Below are positions 20,017-49,075 of a stretch of DNA of 64,000 nucleotides, piece by piece. The notes under the pieces were generated by a model. That model ran no database searches and was not told the DNA's origin. It worked only from the letters and a program-made list of their open reading frames with translations. The DNA lies in assembly GCA_963828195.1 (NCBI GenBank), contig CAWHDT010000004.1, positions 32,001 through 96,000 of the forward strand, given 5' to 3'. Both the position numbers and the translations under genes were made by a program. This stretch comes from Candidatus Bathyarchaeota archaeon (GTDB lineage Archaea > Thermoproteota > Bathyarchaeia > Bathyarchaeales > Bathycorpusculaceae). Numbering within the stretch: position 1 is the first letter of the stretch; every line of letters begins with the position of its first letter.

Positions 20017-20041
20017 TTATTGAACCCTCGAATCATTTCTT

Positions 20042-20087
20042 ATTTTTAAAAGAACAACAACACCGGGAAAACAACTGTTGTTCTTCT
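20042..20087. repeat. Dispersed hairpin repeat, partial copy B
   Basis: Reverse complement matches 1208-1253 at 44 of 46 positions. Confidence 0.85.
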
Positions 20088-29571: not shown

Positions 29572-30246
29572 TTACTTGTAAAACACTTCTTTATTTCCAA
29601 GGTGACCCTTAGTTTCTACAATGGGTTTCGTTTGATTGCTTAACCATATCTGAGTTTCGCTTCTGAACTCTTCCACTGCCCGTTTCTTAATGTCCAAGTA
29701 ATCTGAAATGTTGACAACTCTCGTTCGGTTACTTAAGAAACCAATCATTTTTTCGAATTTTGGTCCAATGCGCGAAAATTTGTGAGTGATAGAATACTGA
29801 AACACACTATTTTCCAAGTTACGTTTTTGAAGGCAACGTCTAATCACTCTGCTTGCAGATTGATGATCAGGATGCCAGTCTCGCTTTAGTGGGAAATATA
29901 CTTCATCGGGAAAATGCCCTTCTAAGAAAGCAGTTACTGCTTGCTCGACTTCAGGCTCATGTTGTGAAAGAGTATAATCTTCGAAATCAAAGAAAAACAA
30001 GTTGCTCTTCAGCACACCTAAAATGGAAACGGCGTCAGTAACCTCTTTTTTTCGAATTTGCTTTATTTCTTCTGGAGTTGGGTTTGACGTTATGCTTAAA
30101 ACTTTTGAGAATGCATGCCTGCCATCAGTCATGATTACGACAAATACTTTGTAGCCTTCATTGATTCTTTTAGCTATTGTTCCTCCACAACCCAGCGTTT
30201 CATCATCGGGATGGGGAGCAAAAAATATGGCCGTTTTCTCGCTCAT
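29572..30246 (-). CDS. PIG-L/LmbE family N-deacetylase
   Basis: APHPDDETLGCGG and HPDH zinc motifs. Confidence 0.95.
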   Translation of the reverse strand: MSEKTAIFFAPHPDDETLGCGGTIAKRINEGYKVFVVIMTDGRHAFSKVLSITSNPTPEEIKQIRKKEVTDAVSILGVLKSNLFFFDFEDYTLSQHEPEVEQAVTAFLEGHFPDEVYFPLKRDWHPDHQSASRVIRRCLQKRNLENSVFQYSITHKFSRIGPKFEKMIGFLSNRTRVVNISDYLDIKKRAVEEFRSETQIWLSNQTKPIVETKGHLGNKEVFYK

Positions 30247-30291: not shown

Positions 30292-31410
30292 TTAACTGCT
30301 TTTTTTAAGAGAGATTTTTAGTTTTGTGGCGATGTTCTCAACGGTGTTTCCCCAAGTAACACGATCGTATAGCTCGCTGATTATTTTTTTGTGAACAAGC
30401 CGCACTTCAAAGTTTCTTCTGTAATTGTTGGTCCATTGTTTCTTGTAGGGTTCATCTCCTCTGGTCATATCGTATTCTGTGAAACCCTTTGCTATGCATT
30501 CTCTTAAAAGAAACATAATTATTAAATTTCCAACAGAGAACTCGGAGTACTTTGGAAGAAAACCCGCGAGGTAATAATACATTTTTTTATCATACTCAAA
30601 CGTGTATTGGGCAGCCACGGGTTCTCCGTCTATCCTGAGAAAATAGATGCCCAACCAATTATTCCCCGCAAAAACTTCGGCTACATCCTTGTGAAAATTC
30701 CTAAAGGTTTCCTCAGCGAAGGCTCCAGGCTGACCTTCTGATTTCCACTTCAGCTCATGCAACCCGATGAAAATATTCATCGCTTCTTTAACTGAGAAAC
30801 CGGCTTCATCAAATCTCTTTAGGTCTACAGTATGATTTTCCTGAATTTTTCTAACGTATCGATTTAGGTTTTGCCTCAAATTTCGGCCAAAACTCTTTCT
30901 TAGGCTGTCGAATGTATTTGGCAGCGCAACATACGGACATAGGTTACAGACTCTTTCCTTCGTTTCAAGGTTTAAAGAGGGAGCCATAAACAGTTGTTTT
31001 GAATAATTAATGTTTTCAGGAATCTCTTTTAGTTCAATCCAATCCCAATCTTCTTCTTCAGTAAGATAGTCTAGTATGTACCTCATGAACTCATTTTCTT
31101 TTTTTGAAACGATAAAATTGTTATAATCTGAATGGCGAGCCCCCAGAAATTCGATTTTCTTAATTGAGCCAAAACTTGCCAGTTTGTATTTAGATAACAT
31201 CAGTGGAGCTATTCCCAAAATTTTGTTGTCTTCTTCGACTTTTAAGAGCAAAAGTTTTCTTTGTGCTCCGAAATGCTTCCACCATGTGGATAACCAATCT
31301 ACTGTTAAGAAAACGTTGTTGCCAAACCGGTTTTCTTTAAGGATTTGATCCCACACGTTTCGAATACTTTCAAAATCGTCAACTTCGGTTACTTTCAATG
31401 TATCCTTCAA
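30292..31410 (-). CDS. GNAT, CelD/BcsL (Acetyltransf_6) Fem-fold transferase
   Basis: FLT.DWLSTWWKHFG, SDY, YYYLAGF, SVG and DMTRGDEPYK. Confidence 0.88.
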   Translation of the reverse strand: MKDTLKVTEVDDFESIRNVWDQILKENRFGNNVFLTVDWLSTWWKHFGAQRKLLLLKVEEDNKILGIAPLMLSKYKLASFGSIKKIEFLGARHSDYNNFIVSKKENEFMRYILDYLTEEEDWDWIELKEIPENINYSKQLFMAPSLNLETKERVCNLCPYVALPNTFDSLRKSFGRNLRQNLNRYVRKIQENHTVDLKRFDEAGFSVKEAMNIFIGLHELKWKSEGQPGAFAEETFRNFHKDVAEVFAGNNWLGIYFLRIDGEPVAAQYTFEYDKKMYYYLAGFLPKYSEFSVGNLIIMFLLRECIAKGFTEYDMTRGDEPYKKQWTNNYRRNFEVRLVHKKIISELYDRVTWGNTVENIATKLKISLKKSS

Positions 31411-33462: not shown

Positions 33463-34206
33463 TCATGCCTGACTTTTTTGAGTTTCTTTCAGTTGAAGAA
33501 GTGCGTATATTCTTATTGCCGCCCACTCTTCTTTAAAGTGAGCATCATACTGGCCTATATCTATTATCTCATAGTTGTGATCAAACAACAACTTTAGCAT
33601 GGCATTGTAGCCTTTATAGTGTGGTGAACTGATTGTAGCAAGCTCATCTACGAATGGGCATGTTAGAGTAGGCACGTCAATGTTTTTTCTGTTTGTCTCA
33701 AGGAAAAATAAGCGGGGTTTGTTAACATTCAGTAATTTATCCATTAAAGATACAAAAGATGTTTGACTGCATATATCAAATGCTCCGAGAAGAAGAATTG
33801 CGGAGAACAGACGATCTGACCCTGATTGCAGATTTAACTTTTCAAAAGAAGACGAATGTACCCAGGTACCTTTTGGATAAATTTGTTTAAGGTCTTTAAT
33901 TGCTTTGGCGCTGTTGTCAAAACCTGTTATATTGTATCCCGATTCTAAAAGTGGACCTGCCAACGGAGAATACCCACACATGACATCCAAAAAATTGTCG
34001 CCCGGGTTAAGATAGGGCTTTATTATGTTAAGAAGAGTTTCTCCGCGGTTGTTGACGTTTTTTAAATATGGATATTCATATCGAGAAGTGATTTTGCGCA
34101 AAACAGTTATCGCTGGCTTTTCTAAATGTAGAAAACGCAATGTCTTTTGCGCTGAATGTTTAACGCTCTGCTTGTTCATTGTTTTCCTTTCCGATGCCCT
34201 ATTCAT
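33463..34206 (-). CDS. Class I SAM-dependent methyltransferase-like protein
   Basis: FLDVMCGYSP motif I and ITGFD motif II; close paralog of 41153-41860. Confidence 0.75.
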   Translation of the reverse strand: MNRASERKTMNKQSVKHSAQKTLRFLHLEKPAITVLRKITSRYEYPYLKNVNNRGETLLNIIKPYLNPGDNFLDVMCGYSPLAGPLLESGYNITGFDNSAKAIKDLKQIYPKGTWVHSSSFEKLNLQSGSDRLFSAILLLGAFDICSQTSFVSLMDKLLNVNKPRLFFLETNRKNIDVPTLTCPFVDELATISSPHYKGYNAMLKLLFDHNYEIIDIGQYDAHFKEEWAAIRIYALLQLKETQKSQA

Positions 34207-34266: not shown

Positions 34267-37200
34267 CTAATTGGAAAAGGGGGAGGTTACGTCATTTTTC
34301 CGTTTTTTTAATGACAGTGCAACCGCGCCAAAGGTCACAAGCACAATTGCTAACAAGACTAAAATGAATGCTACAGTGCTGAACTCTGGTACTGTTGGGG
34401 TTGGAGAGGGAGATGCAGTTACAATCGGAGTAGGAGACGGAGACGCAGTTGGAACTGGAGTTGGTTTTGGAGTTGAGACTGGAGTAGGTGAAGGGGTCGA
34501 AGTAGGTGAAGGAGTTGGAGTAGGTGCGACAGATACAGTAATGGTAGATGCAGTAGAGTTCACCGCGATACCCGTATTGTCAGTTACTTGGAGGATAAAG
34601 TTCCAGTCGCCAACAGCAGTAGAAGATGAAATTGAAAAGTTGTAGAAAGACGAAGTTGCACCGCTAATAGAAGAGTATGAGAGTGCACCAGGAGCCTTGC
34701 TAAACCATTGATAGGTGTAGGGCGAAGTGCCAGTTGCCAAAGCAGATGAAGTTACATTGACTGTTTGCAGTGTCTGGCTTTGAACGATTGTGCTAGGAGT
34801 AGGCGTCAACGAAGGAGCAGCCAAAACAGAATTTACCGTAACAGAAGGCGAAGCGGATTGAGGCGAAGTTATACCTAAGCTGTCAGTAACAGTTGCCGTA
34901 ATTAATGGGGAACCAGAAGCACTAGCAGAATAAGTATAGGTTGAAGCCGTTTTGCCGCTTTGAGCTACGCCGCCAACATACCATTGGTATGATGAATAAC
35001 TACCTGAACCTCCAGTGGGATTAGCAGTAAATACATTGGACTGACCAACGTCCAAAGTCAATGAAGTAGGCGTTATAGAAACAGTTGGAGAACTCACCAT
35101 AACAGTGGCTGCAGTAGAGTTCACCGCGGCACCCGTATTATCCGTCACTTGAAGGATGAAACTCCAACTACCGGTAGCCGTTGAAGCCGAAGTGACAAAA
35201 CTGAAACTTCCTAAGTTTGGACCCTCCTTAACGTAACTTCCGCCTGGAGCCTTCTCAAACCATTGATACGTATATGGCGAAGTGCCAGTTGTAACAGCAG
35301 TAGAAGTCAAACTTGAAGTCTGGCTCTGATCAACAGCGACAGGTGAAGGAGAAACTGTGGGAGCAGCCAAAACAGAATTTACCGTAACAGCAGGAGCAGA
35401 AGACTGAGGCGAAGTTACACCCAATAAACTGTCAGTAACAGTTACCGTAATTAATGGGGAACCAGAAGCACTAGCAGAATAAGTATAGGTTGAAGCCGTT
35501 TTGCCGCTTTGAGCTACGCCGCCAACATACCATTGGTATGATGAATAACTACCTGAACCTCCATAAGCAATAGCAGTGAACATCTCAGATTGGCCAGCAT
35601 CCATTGTCCAAGAAGTAGGCGATACAGTAACAGTTGGAGTGACGGTCACCATAACAGTGGCTGCAGTAGAGTTCACCGCGGCACCTGTGTTGTCAGTCAC
35701 TTGGAGAATAAATTTCCAGTTGCCAGCAGTCGTAGACGAAGAAGTCACAAAGTTGTTGTTGGACGAAGTTGCGCCACTTATAGATGTGTAAGATAATGCA
35801 CCGGGGGCTTCACTGAACCACTGGTACGTGTAAGGAGTAGTACCTGTTGTAACCGCGGTAGAAGTTAAACTACAAGGCTGACCCCGACCGATGATACTTG
35901 GATTAGGCGATACAGTCGGAGCAACCAAGGCAGAGTCAACAGTTACAGTTGCAGAAGCAGAATTCAGCGTTGATCCGCCTCCAGTGGGGGTCAATTGAAG
36001 CTGGAAGCTCCAGCTGCCCACAGCTGTAGAAGCGGAAGTCACAAAGTTATAGCTAGACGATGTTGCGCCGCCTATAGGTGTGTAAGAAGATGCGCTTGGA
36101 GCCTTACTAAACCATTGATATGTGTAAGGCGAAGAACCCGTCACGGCAGGAAAAGTCAAACTTGAAGTTTGACCCTGATTCACTGAGCCAGGCGAAACGG
36201 ATACGGTGCGACCAGCTAAAGTTGAGCCATCTGGTATTACTGAGGCTATTTGGGACAGGGCATTGCCTATAAATATCTCTCCCAAGCCAGAATCATACGC
36301 AGCGCCATAAGGAACCATTCCCACTCCGATATTTTCAATTACGGAGTTACCGCTGTCTGATATCACCGAAACAGAGCTAGAAAACTCGTTGGCAACGAAT
36401 ATTTCGCCCAAGGCAGGATCATAAGCCATGCATTCAGGTTGGGTTCCGACGTCTATGGGCGTACCAACCACGGTGTTAGTACTGTCAGATATCACCGAAA
36501 CCGTGCCGGCCCAATAATTGGTTACGAATATCTCGCCCGTGCCAGAATCATAAACTACACCATCCACGCCAGACCCCGGACTTCCCACAGTTATGGTTGT
36601 GATAACAGTATTAGTGCTATCCGATATTACAGAGACCGTGCCGGAATTATAGTTGGCGACAAATATTTCACCTTTGCCAGAATCATAAGCTAAACCATAT
36701 GGGTAGGTTTGCACGGGTATGGTTGCCACCACGGTATTGGTAGCATCATTAATCACAGAGACAGAGTTGCCGCCTGGTTGCGTAGATGAAGACTCATTTC
36801 CATAATTGGTAACGAATATTTCGCCTTTTCCGGAATCATAAGCTACACATGAGGGACCGAGACCAGTGGTTATGTTTGCTACCACTGCATTGTTGCTGTC
36901 TGATATCACAGAAATCGAGTTGGTTGTATAGCTGCTTACGAATATTTCGCCCTTAGCAGAATCATAAGCTACGCCATAAGCCCAGTTTCCTACAGGCAAA
37001 GTCGCAACCACCTCATCATTACTATCAGATATAACCGAGACAGTGCCGGCTCCAGCATCAGCCACGAATATTTCGCCCTTACCAGAGTCATAAGCAACAT
37101 CTTGGGGCCAGCTTCCCACGGGCACCGATGCAACCACAGTATCCGATATGATTGAGACAGAGGTAGACCCAGAGTTGGCAACGAATATCTCACCCAGATA

Positions 37201-38127
37201 AGAATCGTAAGCTTCGCCAGAAGGATCAGAACCCACAGAAATAGTTCCGCCGGTTGTAAGCACTGCATTTGTGCTGTCAGAAATTATCGAAACAGTTCCA
37301 GAGCCACTGTTCGCCACGAAGATCTCACCCGCGCCAGAATCATAAGCCACACCAGAAGGACCGCTTCCAACGGATGGAGAAGCAATCACGGTATTAGTGA
37401 CGTCAGATATCACTGAGACAGAGCCAGACCCTTGATTAGCAACGAATATTTCGCCCTTAGCAGAATCATAAGCTAGACTTTCAGGATCAGATCCCACAGA
37501 GATAGGTGTACCAACTACGGCATTAGTGCTATCCGATATCACCGAAACACTCCCAGAGCCACCGTTGGCGACAAATATTTCGCCCTTAGCAGAATCATAA
37601 GCTACAGCAGTAGGATCAGTTCCCACAGTAACGTTTGCCACAACCGTATAAGTGCTAAGCGAAATCACCGAGACATTGCCTATTCCGGAATCAGCCACGA
37701 ATATTTCGTTTTTGCCAGAATCGTAAGCCAAGCCTGAAGGACCGGCGCCGGCACCCAAAGACACATTTGCCACAACTGCATAAGAGTAATCATCTAGCGC
37801 GTAAACCGTGTTGGACCCAGAGTTTGAAACGAATACCTGATTTCCAGAATCCCAAACTGCACCAATGGGATCTGATCCCACTGACACGTTCGCAATCACC
37901 GCCTCAGTGCTGTCCGATATTACAGAGACGTTGTCGGAGCCGCTATTGACAACGAATATAGTCCCCTTGTTAGAATCGTAAGCTACGCCCGCAGGATTGG
38001 TTCCTACTGTTATGGTTGCGTTTATTGCGGTGCCGGAGGCTATATCCACATGGGTTATTAAAGTGGCAAAAATCATAATGAAAATAATGAAAACGAATCC
38101 TAAAAGTTTAGAAAACTTTACTTTCAT
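34267..38127 (-). CDS. Surface protein with 14 YVTN/YncE repeats (two 7-bladed propellers), Ig-like repeats and a PEF-CTERM-like sorting signal
   Basis: 14 copies of P..VAYDS..GEIFV.N..VSVI; C-terminus PTPTVPEF-TM-KKRK. Confidence 0.9.
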   Translation of the reverse strand: MKVKFSKLLGFVFIIFIMIFATLITHVDIASGTAINATITVGTNPAGVAYDSNKGTIFVVNSGSDNVSVISDSTEAVIANVSVGSDPIGAVWDSGNQVFVSNSGSNTVYALDDYSYAVVANVSLGAGAGPSGLAYDSGKNEIFVADSGIGNVSVISLSTYTVVANVTVGTDPTAVAYDSAKGEIFVANGGSGSVSVISDSTNAVVGTPISVGSDPESLAYDSAKGEIFVANQGSGSVSVISDVTNTVIASPSVGSGPSGVAYDSGAGEIFVANSGSGTVSIISDSTNAVLTTGGTISVGSDPSGEAYDSYLGEIFVANSGSTSVSIISDTVVASVPVGSWPQDVAYDSGKGEIFVADAGAGTVSVISDSNDEVVATLPVGNWAYGVAYDSAKGEIFVSSYTTNSISVISDSNNAVVANITTGLGPSCVAYDSGKGEIFVTNYGNESSSTQPGGNSVSVINDATNTVVATIPVQTYPYGLAYDSGKGEIFVANYNSGTVSVISDSTNTVITTITVGSPGSGVDGVVYDSGTGEIFVTNYWAGTVSVISDSTNTVVGTPIDVGTQPECMAYDPALGEIFVANEFSSSVSVISDSGNSVIENIGVGMVPYGAAYDSGLGEIFIGNALSQIASVIPDGSTLAGRTVSVSPGSVNQGQTSSLTFPAVTGSSPYTYQWFSKAPSASSYTPIGGATSSSYNFVTSASTAVGSWSFQLQLTPTGGGSTLNSASATVTVDSALVAPTVSPNPSIIGRGQPCSLTSTAVTTGTTPYTYQWFSEAPGALSYTSISGATSSNNNFVTSSSTTAGNWKFILQVTDNTGAAVNSTAATVMVTVTPTVTVSPTSWTMDAGQSEMFTAIAYGGSGSYSSYQWYVGGVAQSGKTASTYTYSASASGSPLITVTVTDSLLGVTSPQSSAPAVTVNSVLAAPTVSPSPVAVDQSQTSSLTSTAVTTGTSPYTYQWFEKAPGGSYVKEGPNLGSFSFVTSASTATGSWSFILQVTDNTGAAVNSTAATVMVSSPTVSITPTSLTLDVGQSNVFTANPTGGSGSYSSYQWYVGGVAQSGKTASTYTYSASASGSPLITATVTDSLGITSPQSASPSVTVNSVLAAPSLTPTPSTIVQSQTLQTVNVTSSALATGTSPYTYQWFSKAPGALSYSSISGATSSFYNFSISSSTAVGDWNFILQVTDNTGIAVNSTASTITVSVAPTPTPSPTSTPSPTPVSTPKPTPVPTASPSPTPIVTASPSPTPTVPEFSTVAFILVLLAIVLVTFGAVALSLKKRKNDVTSPFSN
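34896..35563. repeat. Identical 119-bp intragenic direct repeat (34896-35014 and 35445-35563)
   Basis: Base-by-base identity of the segments encoding GGSGSYSSYQWYVGGVAQSGKTASTYTYSASASGSPLIT. Confidence 0.9.
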
Positions 38128-38507: not shown

Positions 38508-39668
38508 CTAAATATCCTCTATTTCATACGAGTCAGAAAACAATTTCTTCTTCAGAGATGATGGCACTACATCGTAGAAACGTGCAAGAGAGTCAAGAAT
38601 CCCGTCATAGCACTTTACAAAATAAAAAGATTCATCAGATTCGCAGCCCCTCTTCAGCTTAATTTCCGCCATGCCTGTACCATAATAGATTTCTTTGATG
38701 CCGTTTTCAATTGCCCATTTTATTGGAGCGTAATAAACCAAATTAAGATAAACATAATCATTGTTTGAGCAGGCTGAATAATCGAAGCCACATTTAAAAC
38801 CTTCTAAAGTTTCTTTATGCTGCATGCATAAGGTAAAGCCAACAATTTTTTCGTTCTTTTTGGCCAGAAATAACAACGTTTTATCTCCAGCGTGCCTACT
38901 TAAACTTTTAAAGAAAGAAGCATCGTAGTAAGGTGATTGCCTTCTGTTATATTTGAAGTAAAGATTTGAGTAGAGATTTGACAATACCAAAGACAGCTGC
39001 TCGAATTCAGATATGGCTTCAATTTTAACACTGTTTTCGCCCGATTTTTTCAACTCACGTCTAACATTTTTACGAACTTTATAATTTAGGCTCATTAAAT
39101 ATTCGTCGAAAGTAGTCCACCGGATTTTGATGGTATAAGTTTTTCTCCAAGGTAATTTGCGGTATCCGAAATCATTTAAACTATTCATGAGATTTGCTTC
39201 TGAAGCCGAAACACAGATAAAACAACTAATTGAGATTCGTCCCGTTTTGCATAAGCAATCGATTCCTTCAGATATCTTACCTATAATTAGGCTTTTATCA
39301 TAGTTTTCATCGCAAAGAATTCCGCTACGCCAACAGCCAGCTGGAGAATGGCAAAGTAATGCATGGCGATTGTATAAATTGAGAAAGTCCGCAAAGGTCA
39401 ATATTTTTGTTAAGAATGGGATTAATTTTGGTGTGTTAGCGAAATAGGTATCTTTTTGGTCAATGAAACATGGAGTAAAAGCTACCGGATTTGCGCCACA
39501 AAAAACAGCTACGTAGTATACATCTTGTTTCATGATGTTTTCCATTGTTTTAAACCATTCATAAGTGCAATGAGGGTCAGTTGAAAGGGAATTAACGAAA
39601 CTTTTGCCCAAGATATCCACGGATTTTAAGATTTTGAAATTCAATTGTTCAGTCAACTTGACTACCAT
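38508..39668 (-). CDS. FemAB-like GNAT (DUF482-type)
   Basis: W.TFDEYL.SL..K.RKNVRRE, Y..L.YY.PI.WAIENG and K.KRG pattern of FemAB_like proteins. Confidence 0.8.
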   Translation of the reverse strand: MVVKLTEQLNFKILKSVDILGKSFVNSLSTDPHCTYEWFKTMENIMKQDVYYVAVFCGANPVAFTPCFIDQKDTYFANTPKLIPFLTKILTFADFLNLYNRHALLCHSPAGCWRSGILCDENYDKSLIIGKISEGIDCLCKTGRISISCFICVSASEANLMNSLNDFGYRKLPWRKTYTIKIRWTTFDEYLMSLNYKVRKNVRRELKKSGENSVKIEAISEFEQLSLVLSNLYSNLYFKYNRRQSPYYDASFFKSLSRHAGDKTLLFLAKKNEKIVGFTLCMQHKETLEGFKCGFDYSACSNNDYVYLNLVYYAPIKWAIENGIKEIYYGTGMAEIKLKRGCESDESFYFVKCYDGILDSLARFYDVVPSSLKKKLFSDSYEIEDI

Positions 39669-39708: not shown

Positions 39709-40968
39709 TCAAAAACTGACCCGTGGAGGACTCCACGCGCGGCTTTTGTCTTTTAACATGTTAATTAAGCCCAAAGGAGAAAAAGCAAGTCTAAATAGAA
39801 AAGGCGCAGGATCGTTTACTTCAAATAAATCGTAAAACAAACCAGGTTCATAAAACTTAAGCCAACTGGCAAGCAACTTCAAATCGCCTTTCTGCAAATT
39901 TGAGTTTGCTGAGGAATCCTTGATTAGCTTTACAATGTACAGGAGGTCTTGCTCGAGATATCTGCCTTTAACACCCTCTTTATAGTTGAATGTCCCCTTG
40001 ACGTCTCCATCCATTGCTATTTTGTACAATAAATAAGGAAAGTCCACCCCAGCTTTGACTGCAACACAAAGTGATCCCCAGAACCGCGGATTTATCTCCA
40101 GCAGTTTGGGAGTATTGTCGCGAGGGTCAAGTCTGAACTCGACTTCAGCTATTCCGTGCCAATTCAGTGATTCAAGAAGCTTTTCAGTATACATCTTCAT
40201 GCGAGGGTTCAGCGGAGCACTTTCGCGGTAACAACTGTTGCCTCCACTAGGAGGCCAAGCTCGGTTAACTTTTATGCAGCAGAAGGCTCTAGGTTTTCCA
40301 TTGTTGTATACTGCAGCGACTGAATAGTTGATTCCTGGAACATATTCTTGAATTAACGGATATGGAAAATACTGGTTTATGCTGTTGTAAGTTGCAATAA
40401 GTTCCGAAGCAGAGTTGACGAATCCGCCCCGCCTATCAAAAGCGCGATCTTTCTGCCACACCACTGACCAACGTGGTTTAACAACGCAGGGGTAGCTCAT
40501 TTCCTGAGCAGCAAGTTTTAGTTCCGCTGAATTTTGAACAAAACGAGTTTGTGGAATAGGCACGCCATTTTCCATCGCCAACTTAAGCGTCGAGCTTTTA
40601 TCAAAACATGACAGAATTGAATCGTGACTGGCGATGGGCAGTTTAACGTAAGGAGTTAATCTGTCTCTGTTTTTGGAAATCGGCACCAGAGATGCTTCAG
40701 AAAGCGGAAAATACATATCAAACTTTGAGTTTTTAACTATTTTTTCAACCGCTTGAGCATATTCTTTTTCAAGGCTAGTTGATGGGACTAAAAATTGTTT
40801 TCGACAAAATTTGGAAAAACGGGAAGTATACACGGGAAAGTTTGTCAGGACAGCTGTGTTTATGTTCCTTTTTCCTAGAGACCGTATGATTGGAAGGCTG
40901 ATGGGACAATATCCTTCAGCCACTAAGACGCCGTCGCTTTCCATGTTAATCAACCAATAAGGATTCAA
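39709..40968 (-). CDS. ATP-grasp ligase (polysaccharide-associated amide ligase type)
   Basis: DK, YPCVVKPR, LIQEYVPG and EVEF...LLEINPRFWGS; start may be ATG 40944. Confidence 0.9.
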   Translation of the reverse strand: MNPYWLINMESDGVLVAEGYCPISLPIIRSLGKRNINTAVLTNFPVYTSRFSKFCRKQFLVPSTSLEKEYAQAVEKIVKNSKFDMYFPLSEASLVPISKNRDRLTPYVKLPIASHDSILSCFDKSSTLKLAMENGVPIPQTRFVQNSAELKLAAQEMSYPCVVKPRWSVVWQKDRAFDRRGGFVNSASELIATYNSINQYFPYPLIQEYVPGINYSVAAVYNNGKPRAFCCIKVNRAWPPSGGNSCYRESAPLNPRMKMYTEKLLESLNWHGIAEVEFRLDPRDNTPKLLEINPRFWGSLCVAVKAGVDFPYLLYKIAMDGDVKGTFNYKEGVKGRYLEQDLLYIVKLIKDSSANSNLQKGDLKLLASWLKFYEPGLFYDLFEVNDPAPFLFRLAFSPLGLINMLKDKSRAWSPPRVSF

Positions 40969-40976
40969 TTGTTAAT

Positions 40977-41050
40977 TGGAGCCAGGGGTTGGATTTGCAC
41001 CAACATAAACGGCTCTGCAGGCCGTCGCTTTCGTACTCAGCCACCCCGGC
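40977..41050 (-). tRNA. tRNA-Cys(GCA), non-canonical (no D-loop GG, T-loop UGCAAAU), copy 1, CCA encoded
   Basis: GCCGGGG TG GCTG AGTACGA AAGC G ACGGC CTGCAGA GCCGT TTAT GTTGG TGCAAAT CCAAC CCCTGGC T CCA folds into a full cloverleaf. Confidence 0.92.
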
Positions 41051-41082
41051 GACATCATTTTTTAATCCGCGGAAGATCCAAC

Positions 41083-41096
41083 ATTATAATTTTCTG
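41083..41096 (-). promoter_or_regulatory. Putative BRE-TATA upstream of tRNA copy 1
   Basis: CAGAAAATTATAAT on the minus strand, about 35-45 nt before the mature 5' end. Confidence 0.45.
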
Positions 41097-41152
41097 GGCT
41101 TAAAGCCGTTAAAGCCACGTCGGGAAACAATATTTTCTAAATAATAAGCAAG

Positions 41153-41860
41153 CTAAATAGCTATTGATTTGGGTTTCTCAGCTAGAATTGCGTATATCCT
41201 CATTGTTGCCCACTTTTCTTTAAACTGAGCATCATATTGGCCGACGTCTATTACTTCGTAATTATGATCAATTAGTAACTTTAGCATCGCGTTGTACCCT
41301 TTAAGGTGTACAGAGCGAATTGTCCCAGATTCCTCTATGAATGGACTGTCAATTGTGGGTGCCTTTTCGATGCTTCTATTTGTTTCCAGAAAGAACATGC
41401 GGGGTTTGCTAACACTCAAGAGTTTGTCGATTGAAGATACGAAAGCTTGTTGACAACATAGCTCGAATGCTCCGAGAAGAAGAAAGATTGAAAATTGTCG
41501 TTCTTCGTCAGGTTCGGTTTTAAAGCTTCCATAAGAAGAAAGTACCCACTTTCCTTCTGGATAAATTTTTCTCAAATCTTTTATCGCCGTGCGATTATCG
41601 TCAAATCCGGTTATATTGAATCCTGACTTTAGCAATGGCTTCGCCAACGGAGAATAGCCACACATTATATCCAAAAAATTGTCTCCGGAATTAAGATACG
41701 GCTTTATTATGTTAAAAAGAGTTTCGCCCCTTAAACTAACGCCTTTCAGATAAGGATATTCGTATCGGGAGGTAACTTTGTTTAAAATCACTAAGGCAGG
41801 TTTTTCTAATCTCAAAGTTTGTAAAGCCTTATGGCCAAAATTTTTTATTCCTGAGCCCAA
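41153..41860 (-). CDS. Class I SAM-dependent methyltransferase-like protein
   Basis: FLDIMCGYSP and ITGFDD; close paralog of 33463-34206. Confidence 0.75.
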   Translation of the reverse strand: MGSGIKNFGHKALQTLRLEKPALVILNKVTSRYEYPYLKGVSLRGETLFNIIKPYLNSGDNFLDIMCGYSPLAKPLLKSGFNITGFDDNRTAIKDLRKIYPEGKWVLSSYGSFKTEPDEERQFSIFLLLGAFELCCQQAFVSSIDKLLSVSKPRMFFLETNRSIEKAPTIDSPFIEESGTIRSVHLKGYNAMLKLLIDHNYEVIDVGQYDAQFKEKWATMRIYAILAEKPKSIAI

Positions 41861-41927
41861 ATTTTATTTACCCCCTATAATGCCTCGGTTACATTAAAAG
41901 TTTGGTTATAAACGATTTTTAAATTAA

Positions 41928-43040
41928 TTATGAAGATTTTGCTACGGAAAGACGCTTTCCAAGAGTGTTAGTCAGTGGAGAAAATACATCCTTTTTAGTT
42001 ATAAAATTGTAAACGAGTGGAACAATTCTTTTTTTGATAGCTCTAATCTCAAGGTTATGCCTTATCAAAGTATTCCAATTTTGCTTGTAGGATTCATCGC
42101 CTCTCATGAAATCGAATTCATTTAAGCCATTATCGATAGAATTTTTTATCGAGTATAAGAAGAGAAGATGCCCTAAATGGTAATCAAAGTATTTCGGGTC
42201 AAATCCTGTAAGATAGTTAAACATTTTATTTCTGTATTTGAATGCATAAATTGCTGAAACAGGTTGATTGTTTAGTGTAAGAAAACAAAGATTCAACCAT
42301 CCCCTTTCGGCGAAAGACCTGGCAACGCTTAAGTGAAAATCACGGAATTTTGGGTCTGCAAAAGCTCCAGCGCTGTTTTCCGACTGCCACTTCATTTGGT
42401 GTAGATTAAAAAATGTCTTCATGGCCGTATCAAGGGTATCCAAATCGTTATGAATATAGAAATTAACTTTGAAATCATTTTGTAGCCTTTTGTCCCATCG
42501 CCGCATATTTCTCCGCCAATTAGAACCTAAGCCTTGAAAGTAAGCTTCAAACTTATTTGGCAAGATGATATATGGACAAATGTTGAGATTTCTTTCCGCC
42601 AATTCTAGTTTTTTCCCTGAACAAGTCTTCAGAGCCTTTATCGTGTCGGAGTCTTCTGGAACATCTTCAAATTCGATGCAGTCCCACTTTGAGCTTGCAT
42701 GATTTGCGTAATCCATCATTAGCTTAGCGCACTCTGCCTTTTTGTCCGCCAAAAGAAAAGTTTGATAGTCGGCTGCTGGAGTTCCTATGAACTCCATTTT
42801 TGTTAGTTTGAGTCCAGCTAATTTATATTTAGAACGCATCAACGGAGCCGCTGCAACTAGTTTTTCGTCGTCGCTAACTGTTATTAGACTGAATATCCTT
42901 TCGTCGCCGAAGTGCTTCCACCATGTTGACAGCCACTCCCACGTGAGAAATATGTGGTTATCACCGCTTCTTTGAAGAGCGTCGGCCCATTCAGTTTTAT
43001 AATTCAAAAACTGCTCAAAAGATAACTCGGCTACTTTCAT
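41928..43040 (-). CDS. GNAT, CelD/BcsL (Acetyltransf_6) Fem-fold transferase
   Basis: FLTWEWLSTWWKHFG, ADY, YLTGFDP and FDFMRGDESYK; paralog of 30292-31410. Confidence 0.88.
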   Translation of the reverse strand: MKVAELSFEQFLNYKTEWADALQRSGDNHIFLTWEWLSTWWKHFGDERIFSLITVSDDEKLVAAAPLMRSKYKLAGLKLTKMEFIGTPAADYQTFLLADKKAECAKLMMDYANHASSKWDCIEFEDVPEDSDTIKALKTCSGKKLELAERNLNICPYIILPNKFEAYFQGLGSNWRRNMRRWDKRLQNDFKVNFYIHNDLDTLDTAMKTFFNLHQMKWQSENSAGAFADPKFRDFHLSVARSFAERGWLNLCFLTLNNQPVSAIYAFKYRNKMFNYLTGFDPKYFDYHLGHLLFLYSIKNSIDNGLNEFDFMRGDESYKQNWNTLIRHNLEIRAIKKRIVPLVYNFITKKDVFSPLTNTLGKRLSVAKSS

Positions 43041-43139
43041 TTAAAATTCAAATCCTTTTTTTGAGTGAAGATCAGATTTTTCGACTTGGATGCACATCTT
43101 GAAACTCCAACACCCGAAACATGAAGCAATAATTGCTGT

Positions 43140-43213
43140 TGGAGCCAGGGGTTGGATTTGCACCAACATAAACGGCTCTGCAGGCCGTCGCTTTCGTACT
43201 CAGCCACCCCGGC
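43140..43213 (-). tRNA. tRNA-Cys(GCA), non-canonical, copy 2, identical to copy 1
   Basis: 74/74 identical to 40977-41050; flanks diverge within 1 nt. Confidence 0.92.
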
Positions 43214-43306
43214 TCTTTTTTGGAATTGATTAACAATCAGCAATCAGTATCCAAAAAGCTGCTGTTTTGAAAAATGTGAACTTTTCCAGCAATGTTTGAC
43301 TGCCAA

Positions 43307-43906
43307 TTATGCAGTCATGTTTAGCCATAAGCTGACAAATCTTTGATTATACTGGAAAGCGTTAGCTGTATCATTAAAAATCCAAAGTTCAAAGAAGACG
43401 TTTCCGAAAAAGCCGTTATTTTGGGGATCAAATGCAACGGTTGTTTGGCTTAGACTTAATGGGAAACCGTTAACGATGATGTTTTGCATGTCTACTTGAT
43501 TAGGGTTATTTTGATCAAGTTGGTACTGTAAAGAAAAGCTGATGGGGAGTTGCAGTGACTGATTATTAGCAACGCAAAATGGGATATCAACTAAAGACGG
43601 CAGATTGCTGCTTGTACCATTGAAACTGTCCGGAGCCGATTGCGTTTCGTTTCGGAATTTTACTTCGATCTGATAATAAGCAACGGACCCTATATGATTG
43701 TTAACATTAAGATATAATGAGTAATTTTGAGCTGCTTCAACGTTGTAAGGATATGTGGCATTGTGGTAAGCCCCAAAGATCGATAATTCCGTTAAGGGCG
43801 TTGGCGCTGGGGCTGCGGCAAGTTGCTGAATTGCAGGTGAGGCAACAAACAACGCTAAAACGACAGTTGCGACAAGTAAGAGTGTTCTGTATTGTCTGAT
43901 AGCCAT
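43307..43906 (-). CDS. DUF1616 family protein
   Basis: N-terminal TM, TELSI.G....YP, N..G..YY and FELW...LWLN. Confidence 0.8.
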   Translation of the reverse strand: MAIRQYRTLLLVATVVLALFVASPAIQQLAAAPAPTPLTELSIFGAYHNATYPYNVEAAQNYSLYLNVNNHIGSVAYYQIEVKFRNETQSAPDSFNGTSSNLPSLVDIPFCVANNQSLQLPISFSLQYQLDQNNPNQVDMQNIIVNGFPLSLSQTTVAFDPQNNGFFGNVFFELWIFNDTANAFQYNQRFVSLWLNMTA

Positions 43907-45595: not shown

Positions 45596-46777
45596 ATGGC
45601 GAGCTTAATTTTTGCTAAAGATGTCTATACAAATAGGTTTAACTCTGTTCAAGAAAATGATACATTGTCGCGGTGTTTAGAAGCATTTGAAACAGGTATG
45701 CCTCCGGTTTTAGCTGTTTTAAATGATAAGGGCAAATATGAAGGTGTGATTACTAGACGCGCGATTTTAAGGTCAAGACTTGACTCTACGGCGACGAAGG
45801 TAAAAACATTGATGAAGGTTGCGCCTCCTGTGACGGTTGAGTTTTCGCTCAGTAAAATGGCGAAGTTGATGATTGAGAGTGAGATGAGGCAGCTTCCGGT
45901 TTTTGAGAAGAATAAGCTGTTAGGGTTTGTTACTGACGAGAGTATAATTCATGCGGCCGTTCTTCAGGAGTGGGGTGGCACTGCGGTTGAGAAAATCATG
46001 ACTCGTGCGCCTCACACGATTGAGGGTAATCGTTCTGTGGGGGCTGTTCTTAGTTTAATGAGGGAATACGGCGTTTCTCATGTTCCAGTCATGGACAACG
46101 GCAAGCTTGTAGGAATAATCAGCATTGAAGATATTTTGGAGAATATTTATTGGCCTCAGAAACGCCAGACAACAGGAGATATAGTGGGAGAGAAAATTGA
46201 AACATTAAGCTTGCCAGCTAAAGGCATAATGAACAAACAATTAATTACTGTTGAACCTCAAACGAGCCTGCGTGTTACCGAGAAAATGATGTATGACCAC
46301 GACATAGCCTGTTTACTTGTTGTTTCAAACGAGCGGCTAGTTGGCATCGTGACGAAACGTGATTTTCTTGAGCCGATTTCCCAGTTGGAAGTTGTTGAGA
46401 AAAAATTGTCAGTTCAGTTCGGCGTTAAAGACGTAGAGGTTAGTCCTGAACAGCAGGGATTTATGATGGAAGAATTCGATTCCTTCGCTCATAAATACCA
46501 AGAGGCTTTCCAGTTAGGAACACTTTTTATCTACATGAAGAGCCACGGCAACACAAACCTAAGGGGAACACCGCTGATTCACTGCCGATTACAGTTCCGG
46601 ACGGTGAAGGGGACATTTTTTAGCGCCAGCGAAGGCTGGGGGGTTGAACCGACTTTCAGAGTGGCTTTAGATCGACTTGACAGAAGGCTGCTGCGGAGCA
46701 AAGAGCTGCTAGCTTACAATCCAAGATACGCGAAAGATTACCTGCGCAAGATTGGGCTTCCACAAGAAGAAACTTAA
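45596..46777 (+). CDS. Tandem CBS-domain protein with C-terminal HPF/RaiA-like domain (archaeal ribosome hibernation factor-like)
   Basis: Four CBS motifs (GVIT, GFVT, GIIS, GIVT), then CRLQFRT.KG.F.SASEGWG....ALDRLDRRL. Confidence 0.8.
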   Translation: MASLIFAKDVYTNRFNSVQENDTLSRCLEAFETGMPPVLAVLNDKGKYEGVITRRAILRSRLDSTATKVKTLMKVAPPVTVEFSLSKMAKLMIESEMRQLPVFEKNKLLGFVTDESIIHAAVLQEWGGTAVEKIMTRAPHTIEGNRSVGAVLSLMREYGVSHVPVMDNGKLVGIISIEDILENIYWPQKRQTTGDIVGEKIETLSLPAKGIMNKQLITVEPQTSLRVTEKMMYDHDIACLLVVSNERLVGIVTKRDFLEPISQLEVVEKKLSVQFGVKDVEVSPEQQGFMMEEFDSFAHKYQEAFQLGTLFIYMKSHGNTNLRGTPLIHCRLQFRTVKGTFFSASEGWGVEPTFRVALDRLDRRLLRSKELLAYNPRYAKDYLRKIGLPQEET

Positions 46778-46784
46778 TTTTTTT

Positions 46785-46995
46785 CTTTTTTCAAAAGAAC
46801 AACAATACTCGGGAAGCAACTGTTGTTCTTCTTCTCGGGCAGCATTTTTTTTTAAAAGAAGAAGAAGCCTCAAAAAACCGTTTTTCTTCTTCTTCTGCCC
46901 TGTGTCTTTTTTGTTGTTTTCCGTGTTTACGTTGAAGTTTTTGCTTTTGTGTGGTTTTGTTGTAAAAAGTAGGCAGGGAGAGAGGTTTTGGGTGT
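46785..46995. repeat. Dispersed double-hairpin repeat, copy C (reverse orientation to copy A)
   Basis: Reverse complement aligns with 1075-1255, including both hairpins. Confidence 0.8.
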
Positions 46996-47591: not shown

Positions 47592-47644
47592 AGCTGGGGA
47601 GGGGAATTGAATCCATATGTAACAGCTCTGCAGGCTGTCGCCTG
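47592..47644 (-). pseudogene. Decayed 3' part of a canonical-type tRNA-Cys (att-like remnant 1)
   Basis: GGCG ACAGC CTGCAGA GCTGT TACAT ATGGA TTCAATT CCCCT CCCCAGC T; intact anticodon arm, no 5' acceptor strand. Confidence 0.8.
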
Positions 47645-47725
47645 ATTTTTGTGATAATTTATTATAATGAAATCGTTCTATAATAAAACAGAAAATTATA
47701 TATTTCGTTCTGCAATAAAACAATT

Positions 47726-49031: not shown

Positions 49032-49075
49032 AGCGGAGATAGGAATTGAACCCATATATGACAACTCTGCAGGCT
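49032..49075 (-). pseudogene. Decayed 3' part of tRNA-Cys (att-like remnant 2)
   Basis: AGC CTGCAGA GTTGT CATAT ATGGG TTCAATT CCTAT CTCCGCT; aligns with remnant 1. Confidence 0.75.

Follow-up and report, generated by a model that had tools for sequence, protein, structure and literature searches.

Two identical copies of an unusual tRNA-Cys(GCA) gene were found in a 64,000-nucleotide (nt) stretch of the genome of a Candidatus Bathyarchaeota archaeon (contig CAWHDT010000004.1, positions 32,001 to 96,000), and this whole stretch is called the window below. Copy U (43140-43213, minus strand) and copy D (40977-41050, minus strand) were identified by ARAGORN, by Rfam and from the sequence itself, and they were the only tRNA genes called by ARAGORN in the window. 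The two genes are located at the head of an island of surface-glycan biosynthesis genes, on the same strand as the island genes, and they bracket a gene, named Fem2 here, whose product is predicted to have a fold nearest to that of FemX and FemA. A canonical tRNA-Cys is encoded elsewhere in the same genome. We tentatively consider the odd tRNA to be an accessory tRNA of the island that donates cysteine to the Fem-like transferases, a reading that is plausible without being probable.

Both copies scored 59.2 bits against the Rfam tRNA model RF00005, which has a gathering score of 29, and copy D matched the full model (positions 1-71) with an E-value of 3e-10. The sequence forms a 7/4/5/5 cloverleaf. 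The acceptor stem GCCGGGG/CCCUGGC contains 7 base pairs including G4-U69 and is followed by U8, G9 and the D-stem GCUG/AAGC, with G13 opposite A22. The D-loop is AGUACGA and has no GG. The anticodon loop is CUGCAGA, with the anticodon GCA and G37, and the variable region UUAU has 4 nt, which places U48 opposite G15. The T-stem is GUUGG/CCAAC, with U-A at both 50-64 and 51-63, and the T-loop is UGCAAAU, with G55. The discriminator base is U73, and the CCA end is genomically encoded. The GCA anticodon and U73 are identity elements for cysteinyl-tRNA synthetase (CysRS), and the odd tRNA has both.

The initial annotation of this gene had described the stems, the loops, GCA, G37, U73, CCA, the U48/G15 position and the U-A pairs of the T-stem, and all of these structural statements agreed with ARAGORN, Rfam and the sequence. 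It had also stated that the universal elbow nucleotides were lost, which was true only in part. The canonical combination of G18G19 with U54-U55-C56 is not present, and U55 and one of the two D-loop Gs are altered, but U54, C56, A58 and a single D-loop G able to pair with C56 are retained. The elbow is changed, not erased. The comparison of Rfam scores that was proposed at the same time placed the odd tRNA (59.2 bits) near the canonical tRNA-Cys of the genome (64.2 bits).

Copies U and D form an exact 75-nt direct repeat (family D16) with a spacing of 2163, and the identity ends at the tRNA borders. The 25-nt 3' part of the gene occurred twice in the window and in none of 100 shuffles, so the repeat is not due to chance. 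Copy U is separated by ~100 nt from its neighbours on each side, the DUF1616 gene and Fem2, while 9 nt lie between the CCA of copy D and the first possible start codon of the ATP-grasp open reading frame (ORF). Ten sequencing runs were listed for 40900-43300, with no RNA data set among them. No clear archaeal TATA box was seen by eye upstream of copy U or copy D. The motif ATTGCTG upstream of copy U was conserved. An inverted repeat, ATTGCTG ... CAGCAAT, surrounds copy U (~43125-43245) and was also present in the related loci L048, L097 and L044, and its downstream half is the palindrome AGCAAT-T-ATTGCT. This repeat may be a binding site of the nearby winged helix-turn-helix (wHTH) protein, or a processing stem.

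The source genome, G000 (the prefixes G, L, f and C denote sampled genomes, loci, families and contigs, respectively), consists of nine contigs with 2.83 Mb and ~44% GC. Three tRNA-Cys genes were found in it, the two odd copies on C4 and one canonical gene on C5 (397519-397594), which has a D-loop GG, the T-loop UUCAAUU and a score of 64.2 bits. Because of the canonical gene on C5, the odd gene is a paralogue and not the normal tRNA-Cys of the lineage. Among the 36 intron-less tRNA genes called by ARAGORN in G000, CAU was the only anticodon other than that of Cys present in more than one copy. The T-loops of the 43 well-folded tRNAs of this genome started with TTC, TCC, ATC and TGC in 35, 5, 1 and 2 cases, respectively, the last two being the odd Cys genes. 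The tRNA-Thr(CGU) of G000 has A54. One full CysRS was identified in G000 (C5:755015-756442, 503.2 bits), and no SepRS above the cut-off was found there (best 47.2 bits).

The island extends from 13638 to 43906 and consists of co-directional genes on the minus strand. Its GC content is 0.36-0.42, with a higher value in the NHL gene, against ~0.44-0.47 outside. According to Pfam, it encodes GT2 and GT4 glycosyltransferases, a UDP-GlcNAc 2-epimerase, DUF2206, GH5, GDSL, and GFO/IDH/MocA oxidoreductases, together with a PIG-L deacetylase, three Fem-like genes, an ATP-grasp gene and methyltransferases. The minus-strand order is 127-aa ORF–wHTH–157-aa ORF–DUF1616–copy U–Fem2–MT2–copy D, followed by ATP-grasp–FemAB_like–NHL/PKD protein–methyltransferase–oxidoreductase–DUF362–Fem1–PIG-L–GT2. 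Fem2 and MT2 are bracketed by the two odd tRNA copies, and Fem1 and PIG-L are located 10 kb further on.

All three Fem-like genes are on the minus strand and belong to PF13480 or PF04339. Fem2 (41928..43040) encodes a 370-aa tandem-GNAT protein (PF13480, Pfam E-value 1.8e-32), FemAB_like (38508..39668) matched both PF04339 and PF13480 (1.5e-24), and Fem1 (30292..31410), directly upstream of PIG-L, encodes another PF13480 tandem-GNAT protein (1.5e-30). Fem1 and Fem2 were ~38% identical in tblastn. A PDB sequence search with Fem2 and with FemAB_like gave no meaningful match. The AlphaFold2 model of Fem2 (pLDDT 90.6, pTM 0.89) has two GNAT lobes and a FemX-like fold. In the Foldseek search with this model, ranks 1-11 were FemX, FemA, Sbb17 and Sba18, with E-values from 1e-12 to 3e-10, and the matches to 6snr, 7z5y and 1ne9 had E-values of 1e-12 to 5e-12 and TM-scores of 0.62-0.65 by query. 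MprF-type aminoacyl-tRNA transferases followed after rank 11, and acetyl-CoA-dependent tandem GNATs appeared from rank 27 on. In its predicted fold, Fem2 most closely resembles FemX/FemA and the aminoacyl-tRNA-dependent peptide synthases; the use of aminoacyl-tRNA by Fem2 is putative.

The synthases, Sbb17 and Sba18, matched the Fem2 model with E-values of 2e-10 to 3e-10 and TM-scores of 0.51-0.53 by query, at ~12% sequence identity. As far as PDB titles and the title of Maruyama et al. 2016 indicate, such enzymes transfer an amino acid from aminoacyl-tRNA onto the amine of an amino sugar. They differ from the system described here in that they belong to bacterial antibiotic pathways and use a housekeeping tRNA, and no cluster-encoded tRNA was found for them in the passages covered.

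Of 101 genomes sampled from the genus, 7 had a Fem2 orthologue with at least 76% identity, and the cluster was syntenic in these. The DUF1616 gene is the last gene of a conserved block that precedes the copy U position in all relatives. In six of the seven genomes the odd tRNA was found at the same place after this gene, and copy D was also present in three. Both copies were carried by G000, L048 (58.3 and 55.0 bits for U and D, respectively) and L045 (41.8 and 53.9 bits). Copy U alone was found in L044 (genome G396, 45.0 bits), L046 (36.8 bits) and L097 (35.5 bits), and the copies of L046 and L097 have A56, U37, C50 opposite A64 and a mismatch at 29-41. In L047 (genome G528), no odd tRNA was detected even at an E-value of up to 1.

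As judged from the 3' flanks, the tRNAs at position U are orthologues of one another in the different species, and so are those at position D. The two copies must therefore have arisen long ago, and their identity in G000 is explained by gene conversion confined to the tRNA itself. All five other cluster genomes tested also had a full-length canonical gene for tRNA-Cys. When the same three congeners were compared with G000, the canonical tRNA-Cys was 100% identical, whereas the odd copies were 82-94% identical.

The linkage was also seen in metagenomes. The metagenome sample comprised 80 loci with Fem2-family genes (538,195 bases), and the odd tRNA was found in 6 of the 13 loci with a Fem2 identity of at least 55%. 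All four loci with 80-82% Fem2 identity carried it, and L098 had both copies. A more distant clade of nine loci had 55-64% Fem2 identity, and here the tRNA was present in L104 and L169 (Fem2 identity 57-59%), between the DUF1616 gene and Fem2, ~900 nt upstream of the latter. The tRNA of L104 and L169 has the T-loop UGCAAAU, a 6-nt anticodon loop CUGCAG, A73, and the D-loop AGUAAUU or AGUAUUU, with neither GG nor C. The two loci were 97.1% identical in the tRNA versus 86.2% over the 2079 nt surrounding it. Judging from its sequence, a tRNA of this build is expected to be unfit for normal decoding. In L105, L106, L107 and L109 the upstream region was present and the tRNA was not found at E-values of up to 1, and in L102, L103 and L108 the upstream sequence was too short for its presence to be judged. 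Of 67 loci with more distant PF13480 homologues, one contained a tRNA, which was canonical.

In an alignment of 14 odd sequences, 93.2% of the cells were paired and five pairs were changed on both sides. None of 500 shuffles reached the covariation score of this alignment, and the slid controls gave at most one double change. Most of the double changes lie between the two clades, and the sequences are kin. The cloverleaf of the odd tRNA is thus maintained, though the changes do not amount to a large number of independent events. GCA was conserved in 14 of 14 sequences and U73 in all 12 of the main clade; the D-loop and T-loop varied. A specific D-loop/T-loop pairing, C18:G55, was considered and dropped, as the D-loops are too variable among the relatives.

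A precedent is provided by the staphylococcal non-proteogenic tRNA-Gly isoacceptors NP1-NP3, which serve FmhB, FemA and FemB. According to excerpts of PMC7826273, these tRNAs have TGC, which the initial annotation had named, or TGT in the T-loop, and FmhB reads determinants in the D- and T-arm. To the extent covered by these excerpts, the odd tRNA resembles NP1-NP3 in being an extra paralogue beside a proteinogenic isoacceptor, in the replacement of UUC by UGC or UGU, which leaves no pseudouridine 55, in the altered D-loop, and in the presence of Fem-family-like genes in the genome. It differs from them in that the host is an archaeon, the amino acid is cysteine instead of glycine, and the tRNA genes are part of the Fem-like cluster. 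Instead of peptidoglycan, a glycan presumably serves as the acceptor, and in related families the only tRNA-Cys found has this same elbow.

Several observations suggest a link of the odd tRNA to the Fem-like genes. The UGC T-loop is that of the staphylococcal tRNAs, the gene with the FemX fold is bracketed by the two copies, and the linkage extends into the clade whose tRNA is probably no longer suited to decoding. In addition, the anticodon and, in the main clade, U73 were kept while the elbow drifted, and the paralogue has no decoding rationale.

In the proposed mechanism, the ordinary CysRS would charge the odd tRNA, as its GCA, U73 and G37 suggest, together with relatives in which an odd-type tRNA is the sole tRNA-Cys beside a normal CysRS. 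Fem2, Fem1 and FemAB_like would then use the odd tRNA as a cysteinyl donor. The acceptor could be an amino group on a precursor of the glycan, such as one exposed on a sugar by the neighbouring PIG-L deacetylase. By analogy with the staphylococcal non-proteogenic tRNA-Gly, the altered D/T-loop elbow and the weak T-stem may serve as recognition or partition determinants.

The deacetylase gene (29572..30246, minus strand) encodes a PIG-L family de-N-acetylase (PF02585, E-value 2.8e-28). The best NCBIfam matches of this protein were BshB1 TIGR04001 with 77.5 bits (cut-off 182.5) and then BshB2 with 56.7 bits, both below cut-off. In the biosynthesis of mycothiol and bacillithiol, a glycosyltransferase and a PIG-L deacetylase act first, and Cys is then ligated to GlcN by the ATP-dependent MshC or BshC. 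The island follows a similar logic, with glycosyltransferases, a BshB1/BshB2-like PIG-L protein (below cut-off) and candidate cysteine-adding enzymes adjoining. It differs from these pathways in that Fem-like transferases and a tRNA are proposed in place of the MshC/BshC ligases, and membership in either pathway is not claimed. A narrower version of the donor reading, which we regard as possible but doubtful, is that the odd tRNA is a dedicated non-ribosomal carrier for Fem transferases that attach Cys to a surface glycan at a de-N-acetylated amino sugar, with decoding given up in the sister clade.

A number of findings weigh against the donor reading. To our knowledge, PF13480 proteins are mostly uncharacterised, and likeness of fold is no proof of aminoacyl-tRNA use. 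U73 is the main CysRS determinant, and the A73 variant of the distant clade is not expected to accept Cys. The conserved linkage amounts to few independent events, since the relatives are kin. Furthermore, the odd tRNA was lost (G528/L047) or low-scoring with stem mismatches (L044, L046 and L097) in congeners in which Fem2, Fem1 and the ATP-grasp gene were intact. As it is degraded or lost in four congeners with intact Fem genes, the odd gene is dispensable for the cluster. The initial annotation had preferred convergent evolution to random decay, and with copies of 36.8 and 35.5 bits, or outright loss, in relatives with intact Fem genes, this preference is not secure.

The same elbow was also found far outside the cluster. 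The sampled genomes of the phylum (401) were searched with a strict pattern of the odd T-arm, anticodon and acceptor, which misses other acceptor stems, so that all counts are lower bounds. The pattern matched at least 23 of 401 genomes, namely G000, G396, 13 of 17 in family f23, 6 of 24 in f28, one in f21 and one in f38, and a reversed control pattern gave no match in the 401 genomes. A canonical T-arm pattern matched at least 110 of the 401 genomes, including 9 of the 10 other genomes of the genus, and none of 17 in f23 or 24 in f28. In G026, an assembly of one contig with 99% completeness, only one tRNA-Cys was present among all 42 Rfam tRNA matches, and it was of the odd type (C1:1143677-1143748). 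Its score of 54.4 bits is below the 59.2 bits of the odd tRNA of the window. All other T-loops in G026 were canonical. The tRNA set of G026 lacks a few expected anticodons and could thus conceal a second gene; however, BLAST with both types of tRNA-Cys returned this single candidate. An odd-type tRNA-Cys was likewise the sole one found in G010, G050, G034 and others of f23 and f28, and the elbows of the remaining tRNAs there were canonical. An AmoA family search in f23 and f28 gave no match, and as its controls had no match either, it was uninformative.

Five genomes with an odd-type tRNA-Cys were analysed for synthetases, and all five had a full CysRS; SepRS above the cut-off was found in none of the five. 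No cluster genes were located within 10 kb of the odd-type tRNA-Cys at five such loci outside the Bathyarchaeia cluster genomes. The tRNA-Cys of G026, G010 and G050 shares with the odd tRNA the T-loop UGCAAAU, a 7-nt D-loop starting with AG and without GG, GCA, U73, G13/A22 and a nearly identical acceptor stem. It differs in that it occurs as one copy, without a canonical tRNA-Cys found in the same genome or any Fem-like gene within 10 kb, and in having a G-C-rich T-stem and a D-loop whose G-Y letters could pair with G55-C56. As the stems are short and very similar, transfer and convergence are both conceivable as the origin of the likeness. The odd tRNA of the window, unlike this type, is extra, duplicated and faster-evolving. 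Because an odd-type tRNA can be the sole tRNA-Cys beside a normal CysRS, the elbow is compatible with CysRS charging and translation in the same phylum.

Other results from the source genome and its relatives pointed in the same direction. C55 occurred in 5 of 43 ordinary tRNAs of G000, those for Glu, Asp, Asn, Val-GAC and Thr-GGT (for example, tRNA-Glu at C1:142031-142108 and tRNA-Asp at C5:464303-464380), and, as given above, the score of the odd tRNA is close to that of the canonical one. In G396 (98% complete, 7 contigs), the canonical tRNA-Cys was detected only as 3' fragments, with no intact gene. These fragments are located at C5:778557-778585 and 779335-779383, and the sole full-length tRNA-Cys found in this genome was the degenerate odd copy, with 45 bits, the T-loop UGAAAAC and no encoded CCA. 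If the absence of the canonical gene is real, the odd tRNA may serve translation in G396.

The elbow alone does not exclude the odd tRNA from translation. The idea of the initial annotation that such a tRNA avoids the ribosome and EF-1A was based on the elbow, and it does not agree with the sole tRNA-Cys of G026, with C55 in 5 of 43 tRNAs or with G396, which has no intact canonical gene. The loops of the odd tRNA are not those of the normal housekeeping tRNA-Cys in G000, which has a canonical tRNA-Cys elsewhere. In G026, f23 and f28, the odd type is the sole tRNA-Cys found.

These results are in line with a different explanation, in which the odd tRNA is an ordinary isoacceptor for translation, present as a spare, with an elbow of an alternative type that exists in the phylum. 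Its location in the island would then be historical, with no link to the Fem-like genes. Such a tRNA would be the type of f23 and f28, would be charged by a normal CysRS without SepRS, would stand in for the missing canonical gene in G396, and would be expected to keep GCA, G37, U73, CCA and a high score, as the gene in the window does. Still, we judge this explanation somewhat improbable. The odd tRNA has the same anticodon as the canonical one and offers no gain in decoding, and three genes would be present for a rare amino acid while the other elongator anticodons are single-copy. The odd gene evolves far faster than the canonical one in the same genome pairs (82-94% versus 100% identity). 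Its relatives have a 6-nt anticodon loop and A73, or U37, A56 and mismatches, yet the cloverleaf was kept. Furthermore, within Bathyarchaeia the odd tRNA was found only in cluster-bearing genomes. The readings considered here are not fully exclusive, and the odd tRNA may, by analogy with the staphylococcal case, serve both pools to different degrees.

The genus also has a mundane source of extra tRNA-Cys copies, for tRNA-Cys appears to be an integration or recombination hot spot there, which again counts against a donor role. A 3' fragment of the canonical tRNA-Cys (positions 20-73, 94% identity by blastn) was found at 47592-47645 on the minus strand, and sequence comparison revealed a more decayed fragment (positions 29-62) at 49042-49075, also on the minus strand. 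Both are located at the rise in GC that borders the island and flank an AAA_14/DUF4143 ATPase gene. Another fragment lies at C5:398978-399015 in G000, 1.4 kb from the canonical gene, and the 1.4-kb insert between them holds a UPF0175 gene. Arrays of canonical tRNA-Cys fragments were found in G536 and G456. A third type of tRNA-Cys was present 7-20 kb from the canonical gene in three genomes (G482:C1:283514-283584, G541:C10:10566-10636 and G528:C5:36885-36955); it has the acceptor GCCUAGG, a D-loop without GG, the T-loop UUCAAUU and scores of 52.6-53.0 bits.

On this basis, the odd tRNA could be a relic that came with, or was copied at, a tRNA-Cys-associated island, perhaps from a lineage of the odd type, and that is now a slowly decaying passenger. 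The low GC of the island, the two fragments and the ATPase gene at its border, the fragments beside the canonical gene and in other genomes, the third tRNA-Cys type, the graded series in the congeners from 59 to 45 and 36 bits and then to absence, and the restriction of the exact repeat to the tRNA body are all in agreement with this. We nevertheless consider a relic unlikely. The odd copies are full-length with conserved flanks of their own, not att-like 3' parts, a description that fits the fragments at 47592-47645 and 49042-49075 instead, and no integrase was seen among the genes scanned by Pfam. Both positions, U and D, must be old, since each has orthologues with conserved 3' flanks in other species. 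The stem changes are compensatory or wobble changes, the anticodon was kept in 14 of 14 sequences, and the linkage persists to the clade with 57-59% Fem2 identity.

RNase P and RNase Z, which process tRNAs, read the tRNA elbow. It is very improbable that the copies are merely cis-acting tRNA-like elements, acting as RNase P/RNase Z punctuation that frees downstream mRNAs in a polycistronic transcript with no carrier role: the common strand, the tight spacing (~100 nt around copy U, 9 nt between copy D and the first possible ATP-grasp start), the inverted repeat conserved around copy U in several species and the distant-clade version without decoding features are consistent with such a role, but it gives no reason to keep GCA, U73 and CCA, copy D is missing in most relatives with no change in gene order, and it would rely on enzymes that recognise the very elbow changed in the odd tRNA.

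A deviant second tRNA-Cys beside a normal one is also known from Deltaproteobacteria, where selC* tRNA-Cys occurs with its own CysRS* (Mukai et al. 2017, as summarised in part of the review PMC7609411). As far as that summary goes, the likeness extends to a second CysRS-like gene without the C-terminal anticodon-binding part in the genome. The selC* tRNAs are of the Sec-like 8/4 type and take part in ribosomal recoding, whereas the odd tRNA is of the 7/5 type with a changed elbow. The CysRS-like gene of G000 is located at C5:234632-235882, unlinked to the odd tRNA, and encodes 416 aa with a score of 309.6 bits against a cut-off of 340. The WHIEC and HHENE motifs of CysRS presumably hold zinc ligands. 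This short paralogue has WNIQD for WHIEC and HHDYT for HHENE, keeps HIGN and KMSKS, and lacks ~55 C-terminal residues, the anticodon-binding part. Close orthologues (67-77% identity) were found in G077, G442 and G419. The short CysRS was considered as a dedicated synthetase of the odd tRNA, and this was dropped because G077 has the orthologue and no odd tRNA. ARAGORN also called an 84-nt tRNA-SeC(tca) in G000 (C3:100933-101016), in which the T-arm and acceptor pair poorly (check score 9/12); this call may be false, or may represent another unusual tRNA.

The remaining genes around the odd copies are all on the minus strand. MT2 (41153..41860), between Fem2 and copy D, encodes a methyltransferase-like protein (PF13649, 18.8 bits against a cut-off of 27) and is a paralogue of the gene at 33463-34206, as shown by repeats with 74-78% nucleotide identity (families D5 and D14). 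The ATP-grasp ligase-like gene (39709..40968) matched PF15632 and PF02655, and its NCBIfam ATP-grasp matches were weak and below cut-off. The DUF1616-like membrane protein (43307..43906) scored 24.5 bits in Pfam against a cut-off of 31.6. In the middle of the island, at 34267-38127, a 1286-aa NHL/PKD repeat protein is encoded, which has many internal 126-135-nt repeats and a GC content of 0.46-0.48, and which is absent in most syntenic relatives. A 57-nt element with an internal hairpin (AAAAGAACAACAA...TTGTTGTTCTTCT, family D15) occurs at 20031-20087, 46776-46832 and 46837-46893, at both ends of the low-GC stretch, and resembles a terminator or a small mobile element.

In the main texts covered by a literature search, neither an archaeal tRNA-Cys of the G55 type nor a case of a tRNA gene located within a Fem-like cluster of an archaeon was found. 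If the odd tRNA is indeed a cysteinyl donor, tRNAs set aside for non-ribosomal chemistry would be extended from one bacterial genus to archaea and to cysteine. The tRNA gene would then travel in the biosynthetic cluster that uses it, giving a simple genomic marker for such systems, and abundant, uncultured archaea of soil and peat would carry thiol-bearing surface glycans. With a dedicated carrier, archaea would have their first known equivalent of the staphylococcal non-proteogenic tRNA-Gly, together with a tRNA-dependent route to a linkage of the Cys-GlcN type. Whatever the role of the odd tRNA, in entire families of this phylum no tRNA-Cys was found other than one with G55 and without the D-loop GG. 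Since such a tRNA can be the sole tRNA-Cys and C55 is common in G000, the contact between G18 and pseudouridine 55 is dispensable for translation in these archaea. This contact is usually deemed universal, and the result bears on tRNA gene finders and on how tRNAs with a "broken elbow" are read.

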